Positions 12,514 through 30,046 of a DNA stretch of 64,000 bases are shown here, piece after piece. A program made the translations under genes and the position numbers. The stretch is from the NCBI GenBank assembly GCA_942493055.1, contig OW818680.1, forward strand, positions 4,105,902 to 4,169,901. Reading direction: 5' to 3'. This DNA is from an uncultured bacterium (GTDB lineage: Bacteria; Verrucomicrobiota; Kiritimatiellia; RFP12; UBA1067). A model generated the notes under the pieces. The model saw nothing but the letters and a program-made list of their open reading frames with translations. It was not told the DNA's origin and did no database searches. How positions within the stretch are numbered: position 1 is the stretch's first letter; the number at the start of each line of letters is the position of its first letter.

Positions 12514-12873
12514 ATGAAAATGAGTCGCAAAGGTTTCACACTCGTTGAAATTATGATCGTGGTTGCGATTATCGGTATTCTGGCCGCCATTGCTATTCCG
12601 AACTTCCTGAGGTCTCGTAAGATGTCTCAGATGAACTCCTGTATTGCGAACATGAAGCAGCTCGAAGGAGCACGCGAACAGGCTCTGCTCGCAGGAAACA
12701 CCAATCCTCAGCTGAGCGCGCTCTGCGGTGCTTCGGCGTATGTGAAGGTGACCCCCAATTGCCCGGCAACAAAGACGGTTTACGGCGTTCCTTCCGATCC
12801 GGCTGGTACGTTTGTATGCCCGAATCCTGGTATCGCTGGCGATACGGAATTCACCCATTCGCTCTACAAGTAA
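12514..12873 (+). CDS. pilA: Type IV major pilin candidate
   Basis: Class III leader RKG/FTLVEIMIVVAIIGILAAIAIPNF with E5; short Cys-containing head; has its own promoter and terminator. Confidence 0.85.
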   Translation: MKMSRKGFTLVEIMIVVAIIGILAAIAIPNFLRSRKMSQMNSCIANMKQLEGAREQALLAGNTNPQLSALCGASAYVKVTPNCPATKTVYGVPSDPAGTFVCPNPGIAGDTEFTHSLYK

Positions 12874-13151: not shown

Positions 13152-14261
13152 CTACACATACGTCTCTTTGATGATACTTGTATCCGGGGTAAACGATGCA
13201 GGTTCCCCGAAAAGCGTGTGCATATATTTGATGAGCTGGTTGACGCGGTCAACGCTTTCAAGGGCTAAATCGAGAAACTGTGTCTGCGTTTCATTCAGCG
13301 AGCCAATCTGGCCTTGGCGCAGGACTTCGATCACGCTGTTCGTGACTGTGAGCGGTTGTGCGATCTCTTGTGTCAGCTCCGCAAAGCGGCTCATATACTC
13401 TGCATGTGAGAACTTAGGCGCTTTCGGCTTCTTCCGTTTGGGCCGGGTGCCGGGGACTGCAGGGGGGAGGGCCTCCTCCTGGCCGAGCAACGATGCAATC
13501 CGCTCCTTAGCGGGTTCTGTTGATGTCCGTAACGTATCTCGGATGGAGCGGAGGGTCTCAACCATTTTCTCGCTATGCGGCTCATTTTTTTCTGCAACAA
13601 GCTGAGAGACCTCGGCAAAAAGAGAGCCCAGTTCTGTCTGAACGCGTTTACGCCGGAGGCGTGCCTGCGTGGGTGCATGGTGCTCAGGATCAATGGCGGG
13701 CTGTGCAGCCATCCCCTCCTCCAGACCTTCGGGTTTCGGTTTGCGGGCGCGTTTCGGACGTTTGACCGGGGTAGGGGGGGGCGGTTCCTCGTCTTTGGGC
13801 GGGATGGATTGCGGATTCTTTGTGCCGACGCGCTCATAGACGAAATGAACAAGGCTGACGCCCTTCATGCCGGAGTTTTTCAAGACCTCTTCAAAGCCGC
13901 CCATCTCCTGTACTTTTCCAGGGGGTTTTCCAAGGCAGGAGAGGAGCGTCATGAACCCGTCCTGCAGGAGGTCCTTGGAAAAAATGAGTCCCGGCAATTT
14001 ATGAAGGAGCATCTTCTCCTTAAGATTGCGCGAGGACATCATATCAATACCATCAATTTCCCCATTGACCGCGAGTTTGTCGCCCTGAAGGGAAAACTCA
14101 ACGGTGTCGTGAGCCTCCGCAAGGGGTTTTAGGCGGTTAAAGAAATCGATGGCCTGCTGCTGGATCACTTTGTGCGTAATGCCATAAATCGCCACTTGGT
14201 TGACAAGCAGCCCCAAGTCACGAACAAGGAGGATGGCATTACTGAAGGGAATTTTTGTCAT
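13152..14261 (-). CDS. Uncharacterised protein ending in a pseudo-HisKA domain (His replaced by Gln), no HATPase
   Basis: C-terminus FAELTQEIAQPLTVTNSVIEVLRQGQIGSLNETQTQFLDLALESVDRVNQLIKY aligns to the HisKA pattern HE.xxPL with Q at the His position; Pro/Lys-rich linker. Confidence 0.65.
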   Translation of the reverse strand: MTKIPFSNAILLVRDLGLLVNQVAIYGITHKVIQQQAIDFFNRLKPLAEAHDTVEFSLQGDKLAVNGEIDGIDMMSSRNLKEKMLLHKLPGLIFSKDLLQDGFMTLLSCLGKPPGKVQEMGGFEEVLKNSGMKGVSLVHFVYERVGTKNPQSIPPKDEEPPPPTPVKRPKRARKPKPEGLEEGMAAQPAIDPEHHAPTQARLRRKRVQTELGSLFAEVSQLVAEKNEPHSEKMVETLRSIRDTLRTSTEPAKERIASLLGQEEALPPAVPGTRPKRKKPKAPKFSHAEYMSRFAELTQEIAQPLTVTNSVIEVLRQGQIGSLNETQTQFLDLALESVDRVNQLIKYMHTLFGEPASFTPDTSIIKETYV

Positions 14262-14356: not shown

Positions 14357-15469
14357 CTAGTGCCATGCTGTAATGACGACATTGTCTGTTTTTGTCTCGT
14401 TCGGTGGCAGGGCGAAGCCTTGCCCGTCACCGGCATGCAGCTCGGCCGTGCCGCTCCCGGTGAAGGATTGTCCCACGAGGACAGGGCCGTAAAATTCAGC
14501 AGTTCCGACTAAGAAGATACTGCCATTCGGAACGAGGATTGCGCCATTGACAACCGTTTGCGCGTTAATTTTGACTTGTCCGGTTCCGAGCACGATGATT
14601 GCCGGGAATCCATTGACAGATGTAATCTCTCTACGGCCACCGCCTTGGAGCGAGGCATCGCCTTCAAAAATGAAACACCCTGTCCCGCTCCCGATCCATC
14701 GCGCGCCGTCACTGGTACACCAGGCGACTCCGCCGGGCGGATTAGCGGGTATGTCAGCGCTGTCGGCATACTTGGCGCCATTCTTTTCCGCATAAGCCTT
14801 GAGCGCATTGATCGCAGCGGTGAGCGCTGCAGACTGAACATCCACCTCTGGTTGATTTTGTAGAATTGTAGAAGACCCGGTAAACTTGAACAGTTTAATG
14901 GTTCCGCCACTTGATAGTGTCACGGTTTCTACAGAGCTGCTGCCCCTGGACGTGATGTCCCCATTGGCGTGTATTGTTTCGACATCCACGTCAAAATTTC
15001 CTTTCACATCCATGGTGCCACCGACGAGAATATCAAACAAAAAGTCGAAGTAGAGGTCGTCTGGGTCTGAATCGTTCATAATGATCGGACGATTCTCGAT
15101 ATCCGCAGCGACCTTGAATTTGCCTAATGTTCCGCAGGTGCCGTTGGAGATCAACTGGAAGCGCTTGTCGTTATTGGGATCCTGGACGCTGGTCACGATG
15201 TATTTCCCGGAGCCGAATTCGCTTTCCAGGTTCAACCCAGGGGCCTTTGAAAAGTCCGTCTTGAGCAGTTGATAGGCGGTGTTTAAACCCGACTCGGCGA
15301 TCAGCTTCGCCTTCAGCGATTCGCGCAGCACATGGGACATGTGCATCTCCTGTGATGCGGTATAGGCCATGTATCCACTGGCCATGCAAATCAGCGACAC
15401 GAGCCCAAGAACAGTGATGATCGCTGTTCCAGACCGTGAGCTCTTTTTAAACGAATGGTTCGTTTTCAT
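14357..15469 (-). CDS. PilX/GspK-like minor pilin (cassette 1)
   Basis: RSG/TAIITVLGLVSLICMASG with no E5; KAKLIAESGL; beta-helix-like C-terminus. Start moved to ATG at 15469 (AGGAGG RBS). Confidence 0.75.
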   Translation of the reverse strand: MKTNHSFKKSSRSGTAIITVLGLVSLICMASGYMAYTASQEMHMSHVLRESLKAKLIAESGLNTAYQLLKTDFSKAPGLNLESEFGSGKYIVTSVQDPNNDKRFQLISNGTCGTLGKFKVAADIENRPIIMNDSDPDDLYFDFLFDILVGGTMDVKGNFDVDVETIHANGDITSRGSSSVETVTLSSGGTIKLFKFTGSSTILQNQPEVDVQSAALTAAINALKAYAEKNGAKYADSADIPANPPGGVAWCTSDGARWIGSGTGCFIFEGDASLQGGGRREITSVNGFPAIIVLGTGQVKINAQTVVNGAILVPNGSIFLVGTAEFYGPVLVGQSFTGSGTAELHAGDGQGFALPPNETKTDNVVITAWH

Positions 15470-15532
15470 GATAGCCTCCTTTTCACTTTTGAACATGAAC
15501 ATGTCATTCACGATTTCAAAATCAATCAGCTG

Positions 15533-17815
15533 TTACTTGCCGCTGTTGCGCGGATCAACCTCCGCCGAGATGGACGAGGTGATTCGCAGGGGTTTGCCGC
15601 CGACGCCTCGTATGTCTTTGAAGATCTCGATTTCCATGGTGACGCCGCGGACAAGTTCCTGGCCATTCACCTTCACAGTAAAGATACCACAATCCGGTCC
15701 TTGGAGCAACTCGCCTGCGACATCGACATATTTTTTCTCGCCTGGCCACGTGTAACGCACCCACCTCAGACGCGGTGTGTCGTTCCGGTAAGGACCTGTT
15801 GGAGAGGCCGTGATCGTACCGGAGTCAGGCGGAAGGCGGGATATTTGAGATTCGAACTTAGCACGGAACTGAACATACTGTCCAGTGCCGATGGCGATTC
15901 CGCCGGAAGGCGGCGTGGAGGAGAGGGGGCTGATCGATGCCCAGGCCGGAGCATCCTCGATGTTATAGCCGTTGGCGGAGAGGGAGTTTCCCGAACGGGC
16001 ATAGAGGCGTAAGGCACCGCCACCGCCCGCGGGCATCAGGGACTCCCACGTGATGTTCTTCTGCTTGCCATCAATGTCTGTGGTGTTGAAGACATGGGAG
16101 ATATAGTCCCCCTCGTCCGGGTAGTTGACCACCAGGGATCTCAGCAGGGGGATATAGGATCCGGAGGATGCACTCATCCAGGTCGGGACCTTGGTCATGT
16201 TGATGGCCTCGAGAGGGTTGTCGGCAAATCTGTACCAGCATCCTGCAGGCAGCGTGGGCCTGTTCATGCGCACCATTTCGAGATGATTGATCGTTGCCGG
16301 CCCTGGCGTCACATCCACGACCAGCTGAAGCATGAGGGTGCAGCCCATGGGGATGGAGATGTTACGCTTGGTAGCGTTGTGGAGTTCGACAATCTGTGAC
16401 GGCTGTGCACTGGTTCGCGGCAGCGCATTCGACCAGGTGGTCACGACGCCGTTCTGCCAGCAGCTGAGCGGTATGATGTCCGGAGCTGAGCCGATGAGCG
16501 GCTCCATGGCGGCGTTGTTGATCAATCCGTCAGAAGTCAAGGGCAGTTCACCGGGCGGGATAATGACGAAGGAGGCATGTTTCAGGTCAACCCGGCCATT
16601 CAGATTTCCCTTCATCAGCCGGAAGACAGGGTTGAAGCCGCTCTTCCTGATGCCGTATGCATTGGGTTCCCCTTCCGCGTTGAGGGCTGTATCGGAGAGG
16701 ATGGGGATGCGGATGACGGTGAGGGCGTTGGTGGGGACTGGAAAATAAACCAGCGAGGAGGTGTCGCTCATACCCTGCTCCGTGGCACTCCAGGAGTTCA
16801 GACACGTCCCGTCAAGCTTTGAACAGAGCACGCCGCTATCAAAGCCAGTAGGCTTATAGTTTTCATCAAGACGGACGACTGTGTTGGAAAAAAGGACATT
16901 CCGGGCTTCACCGATGAAAAGACACTCTTCGATCATATCGTTATTCAGCGTGAGGGAAACCTGCTGGCCGTTGGCCGAGGTAGCGGAGAGGAGTCCGTAA
17001 CCGGCACTGGCCAGTCCGACACCGGCATAGACCTTGGGTATGGAGGCTGCATCTGCAAGAAGTTCGGTTTCGATGGGCCATCCGGAGGTGCTCACCATCA
17101 GACGGTCCAGCCCGATTTTGCGTCCTGTGGAGATCGGGTTCTTGTCCACGACCGTGAAGGTGATCTGTTGCGCGCCGGCCTGGATGGGTGTCACGCCGAA
17201 GTTGACACGCGCCTTGGTGTTGGGTGTCGGGGCATAACCATCGAAGCGTGCCTCCGCATGCCAGAGGCGGCCGGTAAAGAGATTTTCAAACATCACCTTC
17301 ATGTTTGCGGTCTCCCCCAGCAGGCAGGCCTCGGTTCCCTGGCCGGCGGAAACGACCTGATCGACTTGGTTGTAGCGCTCATCAAACGTGGCGGCCTGGT
17401 TGCGGTTGACAAATTGCGTACGTCGCATCTGAGGCGGCTTTGAATTCTGGTTAAAAATATGGTACACGATCGTCTGCCGCCAGAGGATGTTGCTCGTCGC
17501 GGGATTCATATCCACAAGTCCGTCGCCGTCCTGGTCTGCCGGCAGCGCAAAAGAGACGGCCTGATAGGGGGCCTGGTTACGCGGATAGAAGATGATGGAG
17601 TCGCGGGAGGTCTTGCTCATCTCTGAGCGGAAATGTTCAATGATGCGCCGGGCTTCCATGTCAAGGGCGGCTTGCGCATTGATCCGGTTGGTCTTCTGCA
17701 TGAAGGAGACCCACGAACTCATGGCCATGCCGACGACCAGGGCTAGGATGCCCACGGACATCGTGAGTTCAATGATGGTGAACCCGCTGGTTTTCAGGTG
17801 TTGTTTGTTTTTCAT
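15533..17815 (-). CDS. Giant (760 aa) PilW/PulJ-like minor pilin with inserted beta domains (cassette 1)
   Basis: TSG/FTIIELTMSVGILALVVG with E5; ends with the pilin-like SAEVDPRN. Confidence 0.8.
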   Translation of the reverse strand: MKNKQHLKTSGFTIIELTMSVGILALVVGMAMSSWVSFMQKTNRINAQAALDMEARRIIEHFRSEMSKTSRDSIIFYPRNQAPYQAVSFALPADQDGDGLVDMNPATSNILWRQTIVYHIFNQNSKPPQMRRTQFVNRNQAATFDERYNQVDQVVSAGQGTEACLLGETANMKVMFENLFTGRLWHAEARFDGYAPTPNTKARVNFGVTPIQAGAQQITFTVVDKNPISTGRKIGLDRLMVSTSGWPIETELLADAASIPKVYAGVGLASAGYGLLSATSANGQQVSLTLNNDMIEECLFIGEARNVLFSNTVVRLDENYKPTGFDSGVLCSKLDGTCLNSWSATEQGMSDTSSLVYFPVPTNALTVIRIPILSDTALNAEGEPNAYGIRKSGFNPVFRLMKGNLNGRVDLKHASFVIIPPGELPLTSDGLINNAAMEPLIGSAPDIIPLSCWQNGVVTTWSNALPRTSAQPSQIVELHNATKRNISIPMGCTLMLQLVVDVTPGPATINHLEMVRMNRPTLPAGCWYRFADNPLEAINMTKVPTWMSASSGSYIPLLRSLVVNYPDEGDYISHVFNTTDIDGKQKNITWESLMPAGGGGALRLYARSGNSLSANGYNIEDAPAWASISPLSSTPPSGGIAIGTGQYVQFRAKFESQISRLPPDSGTITASPTGPYRNDTPRLRWVRYTWPGEKKYVDVAGELLQGPDCGIFTVKVNGQELVRGVTMEIEIFKDIRGVGGKPLRITSSISAEVDPRNSGK

Positions 17816-17857: not shown

Positions 17858-18331
17858 CTACTTGTTGTACTGGGTGAAGATGTAGTTCAGCTCCTCTTTT
17901 TCATCTGTAAACTTGCAGGAGAACGATCTGCTCCGTATCGGGTGGAAGGCCTTGCGCCAGCCGTATCGGGAGCAGATGCAGATATAGGTCGTGACGGTCA
18001 TGGTGGAGAGCCCTGCGGAGGGGCTGTTCGTGGCGACAAGGGTTGTCCGTTTAAAACGGCCGCCCGGCTCGATGTTGCCCATGTCATTCAAGTAAGCAGG
18101 GCGGTTGACAGGCTCTTCAAGAAGTTGCAGGTCGCCCAGGGGGATCATCCGGGCCCGTTCGATGCGCGACTGACAGAGGGAGGTGGCGATATAATGGTCA
18201 CGTGCCATCTGGAAGCGACCGACCATGCCGTCAATGAGCGGGATCACGCTGATGATGACGACCATGAGGATCGCTCCGGCGAAGGTCATCTCCAAGAGGG
18301 ACATTCCCTTTTTTTTAGTGGAAATATTCAT
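17858..18331 (-). CDS. PilV-like minor pilin (cassette 1)
   Basis: KKG/MSLLEMTFAGAILMVVIISV with E5; YIATSLCQSRIERAR. Confidence 0.8.
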   Translation of the reverse strand: MNISTKKKGMSLLEMTFAGAILMVVIISVIPLIDGMVGRFQMARDHYIATSLCQSRIERARMIPLGDLQLLEEPVNRPAYLNDMGNIEPGGRFKRTTLVATNSPSAGLSTMTVTTYICICSRYGWRKAFHPIRSRSFSCKFTDEKEELNYIFTQYNK

Positions 18332-24680: not shown

Positions 24681-27600
24681 ATGAATTGGAAACATACGTT
24701 ATTAGTGGGTGGGATGTTTTTGTCCGCCCTCTCGCTACAGGCCGCGACCTATTATGTTGCGACAACGGGTAGTGACAGCACAGGCGACGGCTCAAGTGTA
24801 CTGCCCTATCAGACGATCCAGACCGCTGTGAATCAAGCGGTTGCCGGTGATCTCATCCTGGTTGCCCCCGGCACCTACCAGACCGGCGAGGGAACAACCC
24901 CGGCCGCCTCCGGTAAATCGCGTGTTGTCATCGCTAAGAATGTGACGGTGCGCAGCACGCAGGGTGCTCAACAAACCATCATCCGTGGCAGAAAAAACAG
25001 TGAAGAGCTTCCGTACGGCCCGAATTCGGTGCGCTGCGTCTATATGACCGCAGGCGCGCTGGATGGTTTTACCTTGCTCGACGGGTACGCTGATGCCAGC
25101 TCTTCGCCGCTCTATGCACCGGACAGCCCGATCATTAATGGCGGCGGTGTCTGCGTCCCGATGGGCAACCGCACCCCGCAGATTAATAACTGCATTATTA
25201 CCGGATGCAGCGCGTATCGCGGCGCCGGCGCCTATTGGGGCACCTTGAATAACTGCACGGTTGTTTACAACAAGTCAAATACAGCAAATTGCGGCGGCGG
25301 TGTCTGGAGCAGTGCGGTCAACAACTCGATCGTCAGGTTCAATCAACTAGACGATTTCTCGCTTCCGGACAATACAGTAGATACGTCGATCTTTAAGTTT
25401 TGCTGCTTATCCGCGCTCCCGCTGCAAACCACGCACGGTGCGGTCCGTGACGGCGGCGGCAATATCACGGCTGACCCTGCATTCATCACGGGAACATTTA
25501 TTCCCTCCCGCAGCTCGCCGTGTGTGGATAGGGGTGCCAATATCTACGCCAGCGGGGAACGGGATGCCGCTGGCATGGCTCGCATTATCGGGGGCTCTGT
25601 GGATATCGGTGCGTATGAAGCCAATTTCATGCCCTATCAGTTGACGGTTGTCAACGGGAGCGGCAGCGGGATCTATACCAATGGCGATGTTGTCGCGATT
25701 TCGACCACCAATGCCGTTTCGGAGTGGATGACCTTTATCGGCTGGACAGGGGATACGAACACCGTGGAAAATACGATGCTCAGCTCAACGACCCTGGTGA
25801 TGCCCGCGAGCGCCATTACCGTGACCGCCAATTACCTGACTGACCCCATCGATCAGATCATCAGCGAAGTCCTCGGTGTGCCGCTACCCATTGCGACCTC
25901 CAATGTGACCGTCTTCTCCGTCAACCCCGCAGTCCCTTCAGTGGCACTTGGCCCTGTCGCAGACGGCGATGTGGCCTTCTTTGAAACCGTGTATACGAAT
26001 GCAGGAACCGTTGTCTTCTCCTGGAACGTCAGTTCCGAAGAGGGCTGGGATTTCCTCAGCTTCTATGTGGACGATGTCCTCCAGACGCAGATCTCTGGCG
26101 AGGTCTCAGGCGTGGTGACCCAATTTGTTGCAGGCGTTGGCCCGCACAACCTCAAATGGGAATACAGCAAGGACGACTGGCTGGGCTCCTGGGCAGGTGA
26201 CGACACCGGTGAAGTCGGACCGATTGCCTGGATCCCGGATGACCTCTCAACAGAGCTGGCCGTGCCCGGACCGCTTGCGCCGCCCTCCTTCCTGCAGGCC
26301 GGCGATCCGCTCCCCTTCCCGTATGGCTTCCAGGCTTGCTTCCTCGACCGGAATCCGCCAGCAGGCGCTGTCGGAGCCCTGGCAGTACGCCTGGGCGGGC
26401 TCAGCGGCACCACGCCGCTTGTCGCCAATGGCCAGACCACGGAAACCCAGGTCTTGCTGAATGGCGCAGGGACCCTCTCGTTCCGCTGCTACACAGCCTG
26501 TCAGACGGGTGACAAGATCGTCTGTAACGTGGACGGTGTGGAGAAGTTTTCGATGACGGGAGACAAGACGCGCTTGGGTGTGGCGGGCTGGACAAATGTG
26601 GTGATCGAGATGCTGGATCCGACATCACATGTGGTCCGCTGGGCTTATATCAAGGATGGAAACGGCTGGACCGCGCAGGATGCCGCCTGGGTTGACAGCG
26701 TCACCTGGACGCGCACGACCTGCATCTTGACGGTCCAGGACGGCTCCGGAAGCGGAACCTATTTTATCGGCGATATTGTCACCATCGTCGCTACCAATGT
26801 CACCCCGCTCCAAGTGTTTGAAAAGTGGACGGGCGATGTCGCGAACGTCACAGATGTCAATAGCATGACCACGACGGTCTTCATGGCCGCAGACACAGTG
26901 GTGGCCGCCAACTACAAGGTGAAATACGCGCTGACCGTCAATAACGGAACAGGCGATGGCACCTACTTCAGCGGCCAGGTGGTGCCGGTTGTGGCCACCA
27001 TTCCTGCGGGGATGGTCTTTGACGCCTGGAGCGGCGACACGGAGTATCTTGACGACCCGCTGCGCGGGGACACCCTGCTCACCATGCCCAATCGTGATGT
27101 GACCATCACCGCTGTCGTGAAGGTGGCGCCTTATCACGTCTCCGTGGTCAATGGATGGAATGCCGGGTCGCTTCCGAATCCCGCGCATGAAGGCTATGGC
27201 GAGCCCCAGGACGGCTATCCGCCTGGCGCTGCCGTACGCATTGTGGCGAACCCTGCCCCGCTCTGGAAGACCTTTGACGGGTGGACGGCCTCCCCGGATG
27301 TGCCCATCAATGTTGCGAACGCGGAGGTCACCTGGTTCACGATGCCGGCGAGCAGCGTGGCCCTGACCGCCAACTATCGCGATCAGACCGAGGCGGAAAA
27401 ACTGGCTGCGGCCCTGACCATCCGCGGTCAGCCCTTTACGGTTGATTCCTACTCCGCAAATGGAATCGTGGCGCTCTCTTCCGGCGGTGTCCGTTACAAC
27501 GATCCGGTTGTGAAGTTCGGCGGTCCCTCGGTCGGGCCTGGACAGAGTGTCGTTCTCAACACCGCCAGTTTCACAGGTGATGGCATCCTGCTCTTCTGGT

Positions 27601-28949
27601 GGCGCGGTGACACGGAGGCAGACGCGGATGGCATTGCGCTGGAGGTCAATGGCGTGCCGGTCTCCCCGATCCTCTCCGAAAAGACCACGAACAGTGTTGA
27701 CCAGACGACCTGGTACCTGAACGCCTATCCAGTGACGGCGGCTGTCTGGATGACCCTCCGTTATTCGCGTGACGATTCCTACATGGTGCACGATAACTTC
27801 ATGCTAATCGATCGCGTGACGTGGATTCCGATGGAACTCGTGGATGCCCTGGATGCCCAGGACATTCCCAATATCAATCAGGAGTTCGATCCCTGTTTCA
27901 TCCGCCATCCAAAGGAGGATAAAGGCCTTCACACCTTCTCCGGCGAGGATGGCGGTGTCCGTTGGGATACGACGGAGAGCGCCGTCAAGATTGGCAACTT
28001 CGGCTACGTCACCAACAACCAGCTCGCGCAGGTCGGCTTTGTCTTTAACCAATATTTCTTTAAGCCAGCAGGCGGGATCTATACGTTTGAATGGCAGACC
28101 AAGAGCGAGTCGGAATATGATCGCCTGGAACTCATGCTCGATCTGATTCCGACGAACTGGATCAGCGGCAAGAATACAGGCTGGGTCTCAAATACCTTTG
28201 TCCTGAAAAAAGGCTATACGCGTCCTGCCGAATCCCCGATCACGGATTCCAATGTGACGTGGCCAGTCTTTAACTTCCGCTACACCAAGGATTATGACCA
28301 GAGTTTTCTGGATGATTGCGGCTGGGTTCGCGGCGCCACGTGGTACCCGACCTATAACCTGAACATCACGGGCGGCACCAATACGATGCTGGTCTTCCCA
28401 GATGCTCAGTTTGCCACCAATCCGGATATCTTGTCAGAAGCGGTCAAGGGCGTCATACCGTCAGGGACGCTTGTCACGATTCTTGCTGATCCGGCTCCGA
28501 GCGGCATGGTTTTCGCTGCGTGGTCCGGGCAACTCGGCGGCATCGTGGATCCCGGGGATCCCAGTCAGACCTTTACGATGCCGGAACAGGATATCGTTTT
28601 GACAGCGACCTACACGGCTGCGTCAGACCCGATCGCCGTGAAACCTCAGATCATGACCTTTACACTCAGCGACACGGTTGTGAAGCCGAGCCAGGCCGGT
28701 CTGTTTACAGCCATGGCCCTCGCCACCTCCAAGTCGATCGGCATGACCTTTGAGGGCGCATCCGTTGCGAACTACGAGGTGGAGTGGAGCCCATCCCTGG
28801 CTGGCCAGGACTGTGTGTGGACCGTTATACCGTTCACCTCGGTTGAAGTCTTGGGGAGCGCACCGGACGGCTTTAGCATCTGGAGAATCCAGGCGACAGC
28901 CCCGTCTGACGCGCAGCAGGGATTCTTCCGTCTGAAGCGAAAAGAATAG
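24681..28949 (+). CDS. Large secreted adhesin-like protein (beta-helix N-terminus, InlB B-repeat-like and beta-sandwich modules, C-terminal FFRL motif)
   Basis: Signal peptide; ATYYVATTGSDS...PYQTIQTAV and VDIGAYE; repeated LTVxNGSGSG modules; three SSE/D.L modules; ends QQGFFRLKRKE. Confidence 0.8.
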   Translation: MNWKHTLLVGGMFLSALSLQAATYYVATTGSDSTGDGSSVLPYQTIQTAVNQAVAGDLILVAPGTYQTGEGTTPAASGKSRVVIAKNVTVRSTQGAQQTIIRGRKNSEELPYGPNSVRCVYMTAGALDGFTLLDGYADASSSPLYAPDSPIINGGGVCVPMGNRTPQINNCIITGCSAYRGAGAYWGTLNNCTVVYNKSNTANCGGGVWSSAVNNSIVRFNQLDDFSLPDNTVDTSIFKFCCLSALPLQTTHGAVRDGGGNITADPAFITGTFIPSRSSPCVDRGANIYASGERDAAGMARIIGGSVDIGAYEANFMPYQLTVVNGSGSGIYTNGDVVAISTTNAVSEWMTFIGWTGDTNTVENTMLSSTTLVMPASAITVTANYLTDPIDQIISEVLGVPLPIATSNVTVFSVNPAVPSVALGPVADGDVAFFETVYTNAGTVVFSWNVSSEEGWDFLSFYVDDVLQTQISGEVSGVVTQFVAGVGPHNLKWEYSKDDWLGSWAGDDTGEVGPIAWIPDDLSTELAVPGPLAPPSFLQAGDPLPFPYGFQACFLDRNPPAGAVGALAVRLGGLSGTTPLVANGQTTETQVLLNGAGTLSFRCYTACQTGDKIVCNVDGVEKFSMTGDKTRLGVAGWTNVVIEMLDPTSHVVRWAYIKDGNGWTAQDAAWVDSVTWTRTTCILTVQDGSGSGTYFIGDIVTIVATNVTPLQVFEKWTGDVANVTDVNSMTTTVFMAADTVVAANYKVKYALTVNNGTGDGTYFSGQVVPVVATIPAGMVFDAWSGDTEYLDDPLRGDTLLTMPNRDVTITAVVKVAPYHVSVVNGWNAGSLPNPAHEGYGEPQDGYPPGAAVRIVANPAPLWKTFDGWTASPDVPINVANAEVTWFTMPASSVALTANYRDQTEAEKLAAALTIRGQPFTVDSYSANGIVALSSGGVRYNDPVVKFGGPSVGPGQSVVLNTASFTGDGILLFWWRGDTEADADGIALEVNGVPVSPILSEKTTNSVDQTTWYLNAYPVTAAVWMTLRYSRDDSYMVHDNFMLIDRVTWIPMELVDALDAQDIPNINQEFDPCFIRHPKEDKGLHTFSGEDGGVRWDTTESAVKIGNFGYVTNNQLAQVGFVFNQYFFKPAGGIYTFEWQTKSESEYDRLELMLDLIPTNWISGKNTGWVSNTFVLKKGYTRPAESPITDSNVTWPVFNFRYTKDYDQSFLDDCGWVRGATWYPTYNLNITGGTNTMLVFPDAQFATNPDILSEAVKGVIPSGTLVTILADPAPSGMVFAAWSGQLGGIVDPGDPSQTFTMPEQDIVLTATYTAASDPIAVKPQIMTFTLSDTVVKPSQAGLFTAMALATSKSIGMTFEGASVANYEVEWSPSLAGQDCVWTVIPFTSVEVLGSAPDGFSIWRIQATAPSDAQQGFFRLKRKE

Positions 28950-28960
28950 GAACTGAACAA

Positions 28961-30046
28961 ATGGCAGGTATAGATCGTTTTCTGATGAAGTTAGTCTCCA
29001 TGAGTGGAAGCGATTTGCACCTTTATGCAAAACGTGTCCCGCATGTCCGTATCCATGGTATTATTCAGGCATTAGAAGGAGAGCCGGTCGTCAGCAGTGA
29101 CCAGGTGTTAGGCTTGCTGAAGGACATCTTTCCCCCGAAGAACTTCGAGGAGCTTGGACAGACCAAGGATACGGACTGCGCATACAGCATTGAAGGACTT
29201 GCACGTTTTCGTGTGAATGGCTTCCGGGATATGAATGGCTATGGTACCGTCATTCGTGTGATCCCGGATAAGATTCCCACCTTCGAGCAACTCTGCCTGC
29301 CGCCTATCATTAAAGATTTCTGCATGCTGTCCAAGGGCTTGGTGGTGGTCACAGGACCGACGGGTTCCGGAAAATCAACAACGCTTTCGGCCATGATTGA
29401 CTTCATCAATCGTCACCGGACCGAACACATTATCACCATTGAAGATCCGATTGAATTTGTGCACATACCCGTCAAGTGCGCGATCAATCAGCGCGAAGTC
29501 CATCGGGATACGCAAAGTTTTGCGCGCGCCTTGCGCGCCGCCTTGCGCGAAGACCCCGACATTGTGCTCGTGGGCGAAATTCGTGACTTGGAAACCATGG
29601 AAATCGCGATTGAAACCGCAGAAACCGGACACGTTGTCTTTGCGACCTTGCATACCAACAGTGCGGCTGCAACCGTTGAACGTATCATTGATAAATTTCC
29701 TGCCAATCGCCAGAATCAGATCCGTTCCATGTTGGCGGACTCGCTGAAGGGTGTCGTTGCGCAGACGCTGTGCCGCAGAATCACGGGCGGACGCATCGCG
29801 GCCTTTGAGGTCCTCGTCGTCAATACTCCCGTGGCCGCGTTGATCCGCGAAGGAAAAACGCACATGCTGCCCTCCATCATCCAGACCAGTAAAAATATCG
29901 GGATGCAGAACTTCTGCGATGAACTCACGCGCTTAACACTCATGAAGCAGATCTCGCCGGAGGAGGCCTATATCAAGGCGGTTGACAAGGCTGAAATCGA
30001 TACGAAGTTCAAGCTGGCCGGTATCCACTATAAGAAGGACTACTAA
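28961..30046 (+). CDS. pilT: Type IV pilus retraction ATPase
   Basis: GSDLHL, RFRVNGF, GPTGSGKST, EDPIEF, ALREDPDIVLVGEIRD, TGHVVFATLHT, ALIREGKTH. Confidence 0.95.
   Translation: MAGIDRFLMKLVSMSGSDLHLYAKRVPHVRIHGIIQALEGEPVVSSDQVLGLLKDIFPPKNFEELGQTKDTDCAYSIEGLARFRVNGFRDMNGYGTVIRVIPDKIPTFEQLCLPPIIKDFCMLSKGLVVVTGPTGSGKSTTLSAMIDFINRHRTEHIITIEDPIEFVHIPVKCAINQREVHRDTQSFARALRAALREDPDIVLVGEIRDLETMEIAIETAETGHVVFATLHTNSAAATVERIIDKFPANRQNQIRSMLADSLKGVVAQTLCRRITGGRIAAFEVLVVNTPVAALIREGKTHMLPSIIQTSKNIGMQNFCDELTRLTLMKQISPEEAYIKAVDKAEIDTKFKLAGIHYKKDY

Follow-up and report, generated by a model that had tools for sequence, protein, structure and literature searches.

A large minor pilin with a probably permuted xanthan-binding-type sandwich nested in its pilin fold

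We analysed a stretch of 64,000 nucleotides (the window) on contig OW818680.1 of an uncultured bacterium from the class Kiritimatiellia, and within it one gene of a type IV pilus cluster. The minus-strand open reading frame 15533-17815(-) translates without interruption into a protein of 760 amino acids (aa), P0001, and is present in a single copy in the 6.1-Mb, one-contig genome. We consider it rather likely that P0001 is a large minor pilin in the J (GspJ/PilW) slot of the pilus, with a doubly nested build, a permuted beta-sandwich of the type found in the xanthan-binding module MiXBM, and a probable adhesive role at the pilus tip.

In the proposed architecture, helix alpha1 and the head strands (aa 12-186) would form a pilin fold that is closed by a C-terminal hairpin (aa 723-760). 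Between head and hairpin would lie a MiXBM-related beta-sandwich in circularly permuted order: its C-terminal strands (190-241) would come first, its N-terminal strands probably second (246-300) and its middle strands (693-722) last. An insert of about 390 residues, composed of a variable beta domain (~320-557) and a conserved sandwich (566-692), would separate the last two pieces. The gene and its parts, in window coordinates and from the N terminus onwards, are as follows.

15533..17815, minus strand: whole P0001 gene, prepilin-type minor pilin of 760 aa (about 85 full-length homologues; 264 clusters at E<=1e-30)
17783..17815, minus strand: leader peptide, aa 1-11 (MKNKQHLKTSG), with cleavage before F12 (read from the sequence; weak N_methyl match at residues 9-32)
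17258..17782, minus strand: predicted N-terminal part of the pilin, aa 12-186, with helix alpha1 (14-67), four head strands, helix 144-157 and hairpin 169-186 (structure prediction; couplings)
17093..17248, minus strand: segment B, aa 190-241, equivalent of the C-terminal strands of MiXBM (7EHG 82-133; profile matches)
16916..17080, minus strand: aa 246-300 (WPxEAE...ASAAYGL...SLT..ND.IEE), probable counterpart of the canonical N-terminal part (couplings with B and A)
16121..16864, minus strand: central beta-rich region, aa 318-565, with the variable core at ~320-557 (conservation profile; BLAST to relatives; FG-GAP repeats in relatives of ~980 aa; structure prediction)
15740..16120, minus strand: GDYISHVF...YVQFRA...TPRL beta-sandwich module, aa 566-692, kept in all relatives (BLAST; couplings)
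15650..15739, minus strand: segment A, aa 693-722 (GEKKYVDVAGELLQGPDCGIFTVKVNGQEL), putative equivalent of 7EHG 56-80, a stretch that precedes the counterpart of B in the canonical module (profile matches; couplings to B)
15536..15649, minus strand: C-terminal hairpin, aa 723-760 (725-736, 742-753), proposed last strands of the pilin fold (structure prediction; couplings)

Sequence similarity to xanthan-binding modules

MiXBM (7EHG) is the xanthan-binding module of a Microbacterium xanthan lyase (PMC10881899), and polysaccharide binding has been shown for modules of this type (PMC10881899, PMC11002231). A family profile built from 83 homologues of P0001 matches the last three strands of MiXBM (7EHG 96-133 of 138, E=3.9e-5). 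Segment B is thus clearly homologous to the C-terminal strands of a MiXBM-type module, which agrees with the first-pass annotation of this DNA, where B was taken for the second half of a sandwich.

We joined aa 692-724 to the front of aa 187-245 and found that the profile of this permuted concatenate follows 7EHG colinearly from residue 63 to residue 133, running through the artificial junction in a single stretch of 34.8 bits (E=5.4e-8). [quoted passage not shown] The match to a carbohydrate-binding module (CBM) that had been predicted for the joined segments 696-722 and 190-241 was therefore obtained. In the native-order control, each target is matched in two separate stretches, and A again maps directly upstream of B in both; here B scores 30.0 bits (7EHG) and 18.2 bits (6F2P), and A scores 2.6 and 5.1 bits, respectively. 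A profile of A on its own (692-724) reaches 14.4 bits on 6F2P 808-847, a score attained by none of 5000 shuffles, and 5.5 bits on 7EHG 56-84, attained by 22 of 5000.

Segment A is therefore credibly, as far as profile matches can tell, homologous to the strands that precede the equivalent of B. Since A maps upstream of B in 7EHG and 6F2P, the strand order is reversed in P0001: the equivalent of B precedes that of A by about 450 residues, and the strands are not contiguous in the canonical order. In total, the match to the module of ~138 residues covers residues 56-133, with significant similarity over about 75 residues, and includes a shared G-x-H...GKN..S.G...D motif and a V-D-G strand.

Two details of the earlier description have to be changed. 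Residues 696-722 do seem to be the partner of B in the sandwich, as homology and couplings indicate, but they correspond to the middle of the module (7EHG 56-80 of 138) and not to its first half. Similarly, the sandwich is of CBM type, but CBM6/35 is not its best relative; this is the xanthan-lyase module of 7EHG and 6F2P, and Pfam gives only marginal matches on the concatenates, with CBM_6 found in one of 43 (E=0.003). Placing either 556-691 or 244-322 before the concatenate did not extend the alignment into 7EHG 1-62, so that the identity of the canonical N-terminal part has to be argued from co-evolution only.

Co-evolution and predicted packing of the sandwich

We used the alignment of 83 sequences as input for AlphaFold2 (AF2). 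The full-length model (m01931097a9f3) has a mean predicted local distance difference test score (pLDDT) of 88.7 and a predicted template modelling score (pTM) of 0.75, and consists of a helix at 14-67 and beta strands elsewhere; for the segments discussed here, strands are predicted at 200-211, 215-224, 235-240, 695-706, 711-716, 725-736 and 742-753. Mean-field direct couplings were calculated for 225 homologues with a length of 600 aa or more (effective number 198; 270,480 residue pairs). These 225 sequences were aligned in a fast MAFFT run, and for this reason we did not interpret couplings inside 340-560, where the alignment is poor and makes them unreliable.

The pair 216-717, which joins B to A, ranks second among the 270,480 pairs (z=14.6). 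Its residues are exchanged together: we find His/Asp in 164 sequences, Gln/Asn in 29 and Asn/Asn in 15. In MiXBM, the positions that align with this pair are likewise occupied by His (216) and Asp (717). The pair may form a polar contact between strands that has been conserved, or modules of this type may bind a metal or a ligand there. In the window, the codon of aa 216 is found at 17168-17170 and that of aa 717 at 15665-15667. Further couplings between B and A are 218-714 (rank 7), 236-703 (rank 22) and 224-721, 233-708 and 219-715 (ranks 68-103).

A scan for antiparallel ladders between 190-243 and the whole protein gave A (695-720) and the strand region 276-287 as the best distant partners. 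The ladder 219/714 scores 4.37, a value that none of 40,000 random ladders reaches, and the ladder 236/704 scores 2.65; the ladders 218/287 and 233/280 join B to 276-287. The couplings 238-270, 274-704 and 290-714 have ranks 24-45. Because B, A and 276-287 pair in this way, the sandwich most likely comprises 190-300 together with 693-722, that is about 140 residues, which is the size of MiXBM. Both the pairing and the size suggest that 246-300 is probably the canonical N-terminal part. Helix 144-157 of the pilin head is coupled to A (151-699, rank 9) as well as to B (151-236), which suggests a rigid docking of the sandwich on the head.

Profile mapping and couplings together bear out the idea, put forward in the first-pass annotation, that two segments of one sandwich stand in reversed order ~450 aa apart and enclose other domains. 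The nested succession of pilin head, sandwich piece, other domains, sandwich piece and pilin tail was also recovered.

Alternatively, chance or convergence could have made 693-722 resemble the upstream strands of MiXBM, and P0001 would then contain a distinct sandwich that shares only the C-terminal three-strand motif, with no true permutation. The low scores of A in the native-order control, the unmatched 55-62 N-terminal residues of the module and the marginal Pfam CBM matches are all compatible with this, and 7EHG and 6F2P are homologues of each other and therefore not independent targets. On the other hand, the profile of A beats all 5000 shuffles on 6F2P and 4978 of 5000 on 7EHG, the position of A just ahead of B recurs in both targets with the same short junction gap, and the co-varying pair 216/717 is His/Asp at the aligned positions of MiXBM too. 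We consider such a coincidence improbable and keep to a permuted sandwich.

A Foldseek search of the whole model against the Protein Data Bank (PDB) was uninformative and returned long alignments of low template modelling score (TM<=0.17) to multi-sandwich adhesins, phage baseplate proteins and capsids. Cys164, Cys298, Cys526 and Cys709 of P0001 co-occur in about 40% of the family (Fisher p down to 1e-24). The idea that they form disulfides was dropped, as they co-occur by clade and no pair of them is coupled; they may reflect clade-specific disulfides or mere shared ancestry.

Proposed pilin fold and prepilin signature

The translation of P0001 starts with a class III signal: a basic leader of 11 residues ending in Gly is followed by FTIIELTMSVGILALVVGMA, with Glu at position +5. 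Two A24 prepilin peptidases are encoded in the genome (two PF01478 matches above the cut-off). AF2 predicts the long N-terminal helix (14-67) and, after it, an antiparallel sheet with strands between 75 and 136 (pLDDT 86-91), and the head is internally coupled (129-177, rank 4; 62-129).

No other block of the family is as conserved as the hairpin 725-753, which AF2 predicts with confidence. This hairpin shows moderate couplings to helix alpha1 (59-749, 56-749, 62-727, 63-725 and 54-734) and to the head sheet (125-731; ladder 128/729). A count-based test did not find a significant enrichment of head-to-tail couplings, so that the packing of the tail is supported by individual pairs and ladders alone.

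Matches to pilin profiles are weak. P0001 scores 13.7 bits with Pfam N_methyl (PF07963; cut-off 21.2) and 10.2 bits with TIGR02532 (cut-off 16.3), whereas many members of its family pass PF07963, for example P0170 with 25.6 bits. The NCBIfam scan gave weak N-terminal matches to several pilin families. Verru_Chthon cassette protein C (TIGR02599) matches with 15.9 bits at the N-terminal helix only, against a cut-off of 256.5 bits. No GspJ or PilW family (Pfam T2SSJ and PilW, and their NCBIfam equivalents) matches P0001 at E<=1, nor does PF05567 (T4P_PilY1). Searching the genome with PF05567 also gave no match, but the same is true of every control genome, so this search says nothing about PilY1 or about the conjecture of the first-pass annotation that P0001 may stand in for it.

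The enclosed domains and the swappable middle

Conservation in the close family is high at 41-320 and 561-760 and low at 340-560, and the core ~320-557 is the least conserved part of P0001. In BLAST comparisons, P0089, P0092, P0093 and P0095 align to P0001 only at ~1-260/350 and ~558-760. Likewise, about 34 of the 150 best representatives match the profile in two stretches with the middle unmatched, and relatives of ~980 aa have FG-GAP/VCBS repeats in place of the middle of P0001. The central region ~320-557 is a swappable cassette, which has been exchanged in some relatives.

The module 566-692 is a separate conserved domain with many internal couplings (for example 588-686, 575-619 and 650-686), and it has neither a Pfam match nor a sequence match in the PDB. 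It contacts 295-308, and the pair 297-650 (Glu/Phe versus Asp/Tyr) is the top-ranked coupling of the whole protein. As this pair joins the strand 294-297 to the YVQFRA strand, it implies a fixed interface between the permuted sandwich and 566-692. The codons of aa 297 and aa 650 are at 16925-16927 and 15866-15868.

Modelled alone, aa 318-692 are predicted with a pLDDT of 93.5 and a pTM of 0.90. Foldseek searches with this model against PDB and BFVD gave weak, generic sandwich or jelly-roll matches only (TM up to 0.39), such as the carbohydrate esterase 7TOH (TM 0.29), phage tail proteins (TM<=0.39), peptidylglycine monooxygenase and capsids.

The pilus cluster and the minor-pilin triad

A complete type IV pilus cluster is found in the window, with genes for PilB, PilC, PilM-Q and PilT, a sigma54 response regulator and a 119-aa protein, encoded at 12514-12873, that resembles a major pilin. 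The operon of P0001 runs from a PAS protein through a 157-aa pilin, P0001 and a 384-aa protein to a HisKA-only protein. Other members of the cluster are PilM/N/O/P-like genes, the secretin, a 1422-aa beta-helix/B-repeat protein and PilT. The two direct neighbours of P0001 are:

17858..18331, minus strand: upstream partner, 157-aa GspI/ComGE-like minor pilin (G/MSLLE; weak GspI/ComGE matches; homologous partner in the Lentisphaerae-labelled locus L002)
14357..15511, minus strand: downstream partner, 384-aa GspK/PilX-like minor pilin without Glu5 (weak GspK N-terminal match, E=9e-6; homologous partner in L002)

Because it is flanked by a GspI-like and a GspK-like gene, P0001 occupies the J slot by position. 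The first-pass annotation had called it a PilW-like subunit, which holds for the place of the gene in the I-J-K triad but finds no counterpart in a PilW or GspJ profile match. The triad of a small pilin, a giant pilin and a K-like protein of ~360 aa is conserved in two further loci. In L004 it lies within a fully syntenic pilus cluster; in L002, a contig labelled Lentisphaerae, it is an isolated cassette of three genes with no pilus cluster nearby. The L002 triad (L002:5585-10021) comprises a 138-aa pilin, a 970-aa FG-GAP variant and a 364-aa K-like protein, and adjoins genes of sugar modification (DegT aminotransferase, GT2, polysaccharide deacetylase and formyltransferase).

One could ask whether P0001 is instead part of a pseudopilus of the type II secretion kind and acts in protein export, not in a surface pilus. 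Homologues are labelled "type II secretion system protein" or "PulG", and the neighbours match GspI and GspK weakly. However, such source names are generic automatic labels, the cluster contains PilM/N/O-like genes, a secretin, a PilB-type ATPase and a PilT-type retraction ATPase (28961-30046), and a GspC/L/M set is absent from it. We regard a secretion pseudopilus as very improbable.

For a type IV pilus, the 157-aa I-like pilin, P0001 and the 384-aa K-like protein would, by analogy with HIJK and PilABC, form a complex at the pilus tip, where the bulky head of P0001 would offer a surface for adhesion, by glycan binding or otherwise. The permuted sandwich may act as a rigid socket, and its joined canonical termini would permit the swapping of whole modules. 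An adhesive or glycan-binding role at the tip would be the best-supported function of P0001. More tentatively, and with some doubt on our part, the whole family may be a display scaffold, i.e. a tip subunit in which a CBM-type sandwich is permuted and welded into the pilin fold while cassettes are swapped, so that the function of PilY1 is carried inside a true pilin.

It could also be that P0001 is a core minor pilin that primes assembly, with its beta domains as a mere structural cap and a sandwich that has lost any binding activity, and that adhesion is provided by another protein, e.g. the 1422-aa one. In other systems, assembly depends on minor pilins of the HIJK type (PMC9934059). The sandwich of P0001 shows strong conservation whereas ligand-binding modules usually vary, the adhesin-like 1422-aa gene sits between pilQ and pilT, and Foldseek gave no lectin-specific match for aa 318-692. 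On the other hand, a variable cassette that can be exchanged for FG-GAP repeats is hard to reconcile with a pure cap, the sandwich is homologous to a module with demonstrated polysaccharide binding (PMC10881899, PMC11002231), and in L002 the triad occurs without other pilus genes nearby. In our view a purely structural role is unlikely, though less so than the other two alternatives.

Several points weigh against a permuted, adhesive tip pilin. Segment A adds only about 5-12 bits to the alignment, and no counterpart of residues 1 to 55-62 of the canonical module could be detected by sequence. The predicted packing of the segments is read from co-evolution and AF2 confidence, the head-to-tail couplings are only moderate and show no enrichment in the count test, and no specific structural relative of the modelled aa 318-692 was returned by Foldseek. 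Finally, P0001 itself does not reach the Pfam cut-off for N_methyl and is not matched by a PilW or GspJ profile.

Two other genes of the cluster may be mentioned here. The 1422-aa protein (24681-28949, plus strand), encoded between the secretin gene (pilQ) and pilT, begins with a beta-helix that resembles pectate lyase and contains five divergent InlB B-repeats, which makes it another candidate for a tip, cargo or surface adhesin of the cluster. The HisKA-only protein that closes the minor-pilin operon (13152-14261, minus strand) is 43% identical to its counterpart at L004:9598-10713.

Comparison with known modular pilins and tip proteins

Modular minor pilins account for much of the functional range of type IV filaments. 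P0001, with its pilin N-terminus, CBM-like sandwich and further beta domains, corresponds to a modular pilin as defined by Raynaud et al. The closest parallel is PilC of Streptococcus sanguinis, a lectin-bearing modular pilin that is stabilised by the GspI-like PilA and has been modelled at the tip (PMC9934059; bioRxiv 10.1101/2021.01.27.428410). Both are large minor pilins of the widespread modular class with a carbohydrate-binding-type sandwich, a small GspI-like pilin encoded beside them and a predicted position at the tip. In PilC, however, the lectin module is grafted via a linker after a complete short pilin module, whereas the extra domains of P0001 lie inside the pilin fold and its sandwich is permuted and itself interrupted. 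The two proteins are not related in sequence, and the host of P0001 is a diderm bacterium of the Planctomycetes-Verrucomicrobia-Chlamydiae (PVC) group.

A large non-pilin domain inserted in the pilin beta-sheet is also known from GspK and from ComZ of Thermus thermophilus, where it precedes the last pilin strand (PMC6561018), and both proteins have been argued to fit the filament tip only. Unlike P0001, ComZ carries one beta-solenoid and binds DNA, and GspK, which lacks Glu5, has an alpha domain inserted at a different position. In P0001, Glu5 is retained, the gene stands in the J slot and beta-sandwiches are inserted at two nested levels. The modules of MiXBM and 6F2P, for their part, are contiguous, comprise ~138 residues in canonical order and are appended to polysaccharide lyases, whereas in P0001 the order is permuted, about 390 residues are inserted and the first third is unrecognisable by sequence.

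The PilY1/PilC tip adhesins of diderm type IVa pili are similar to P0001 in that a bulky adhesive structure is proposed to sit on the minor-pilin tip complex, and the FG-GAP-repeat relatives of P0001 recall the beta-propeller of PilY1. The difference is that PilY1 lacks a class III signal and is not a pilin, whereas P0001 is itself one.

In the modular pilins described so far, a module is grafted on the end of the pilin or one domain is inserted. P0001 differs from them in its two-level nesting, its permuted CBM-type sandwich and its exchangeable cassette, and illustrates how a pilin can bear very large payloads with the assembly interface undisturbed and how a permuted sandwich may serve as an adaptor for exchangeable modules. 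The substrates on which Kiritimatiellia and their relatives live are complex and often sulfated polysaccharides, and a pilus tip that bears a module of a polysaccharide-binding type would be a plausible means of holding on to them.

Distribution of the family

A word-indexed search gave about 85 full-length homologues with 41-86% identity to P0001, and those that are labelled come from Kiritimatiellia metagenome bins. In an exhaustive profile search over the representatives of clusters at 50% identity, we found 1834 matches at E<=1e-3, 504 at E<=1e-10 and 264 at E<=1e-30; most representatives of the family have 670-720 aa and match the profile from end to end. No Pfam model covers the family and none of its structures has been solved, which makes it a good target for annotation and structural work.

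Its distribution is patchy within one class of the phylum, with additional relatives labelled Lentisphaerae. Among 151 evenly sampled genomes of the phylum, ten contain the family (8 of 79 genera, all from one class), some of them in two copies. In a set of three such genomes (G071, G137 and G035), two genomes of one genus have a second copy that matches in two stretches, which indicates a different middle, and in one genome a copy has an in-frame TAA.

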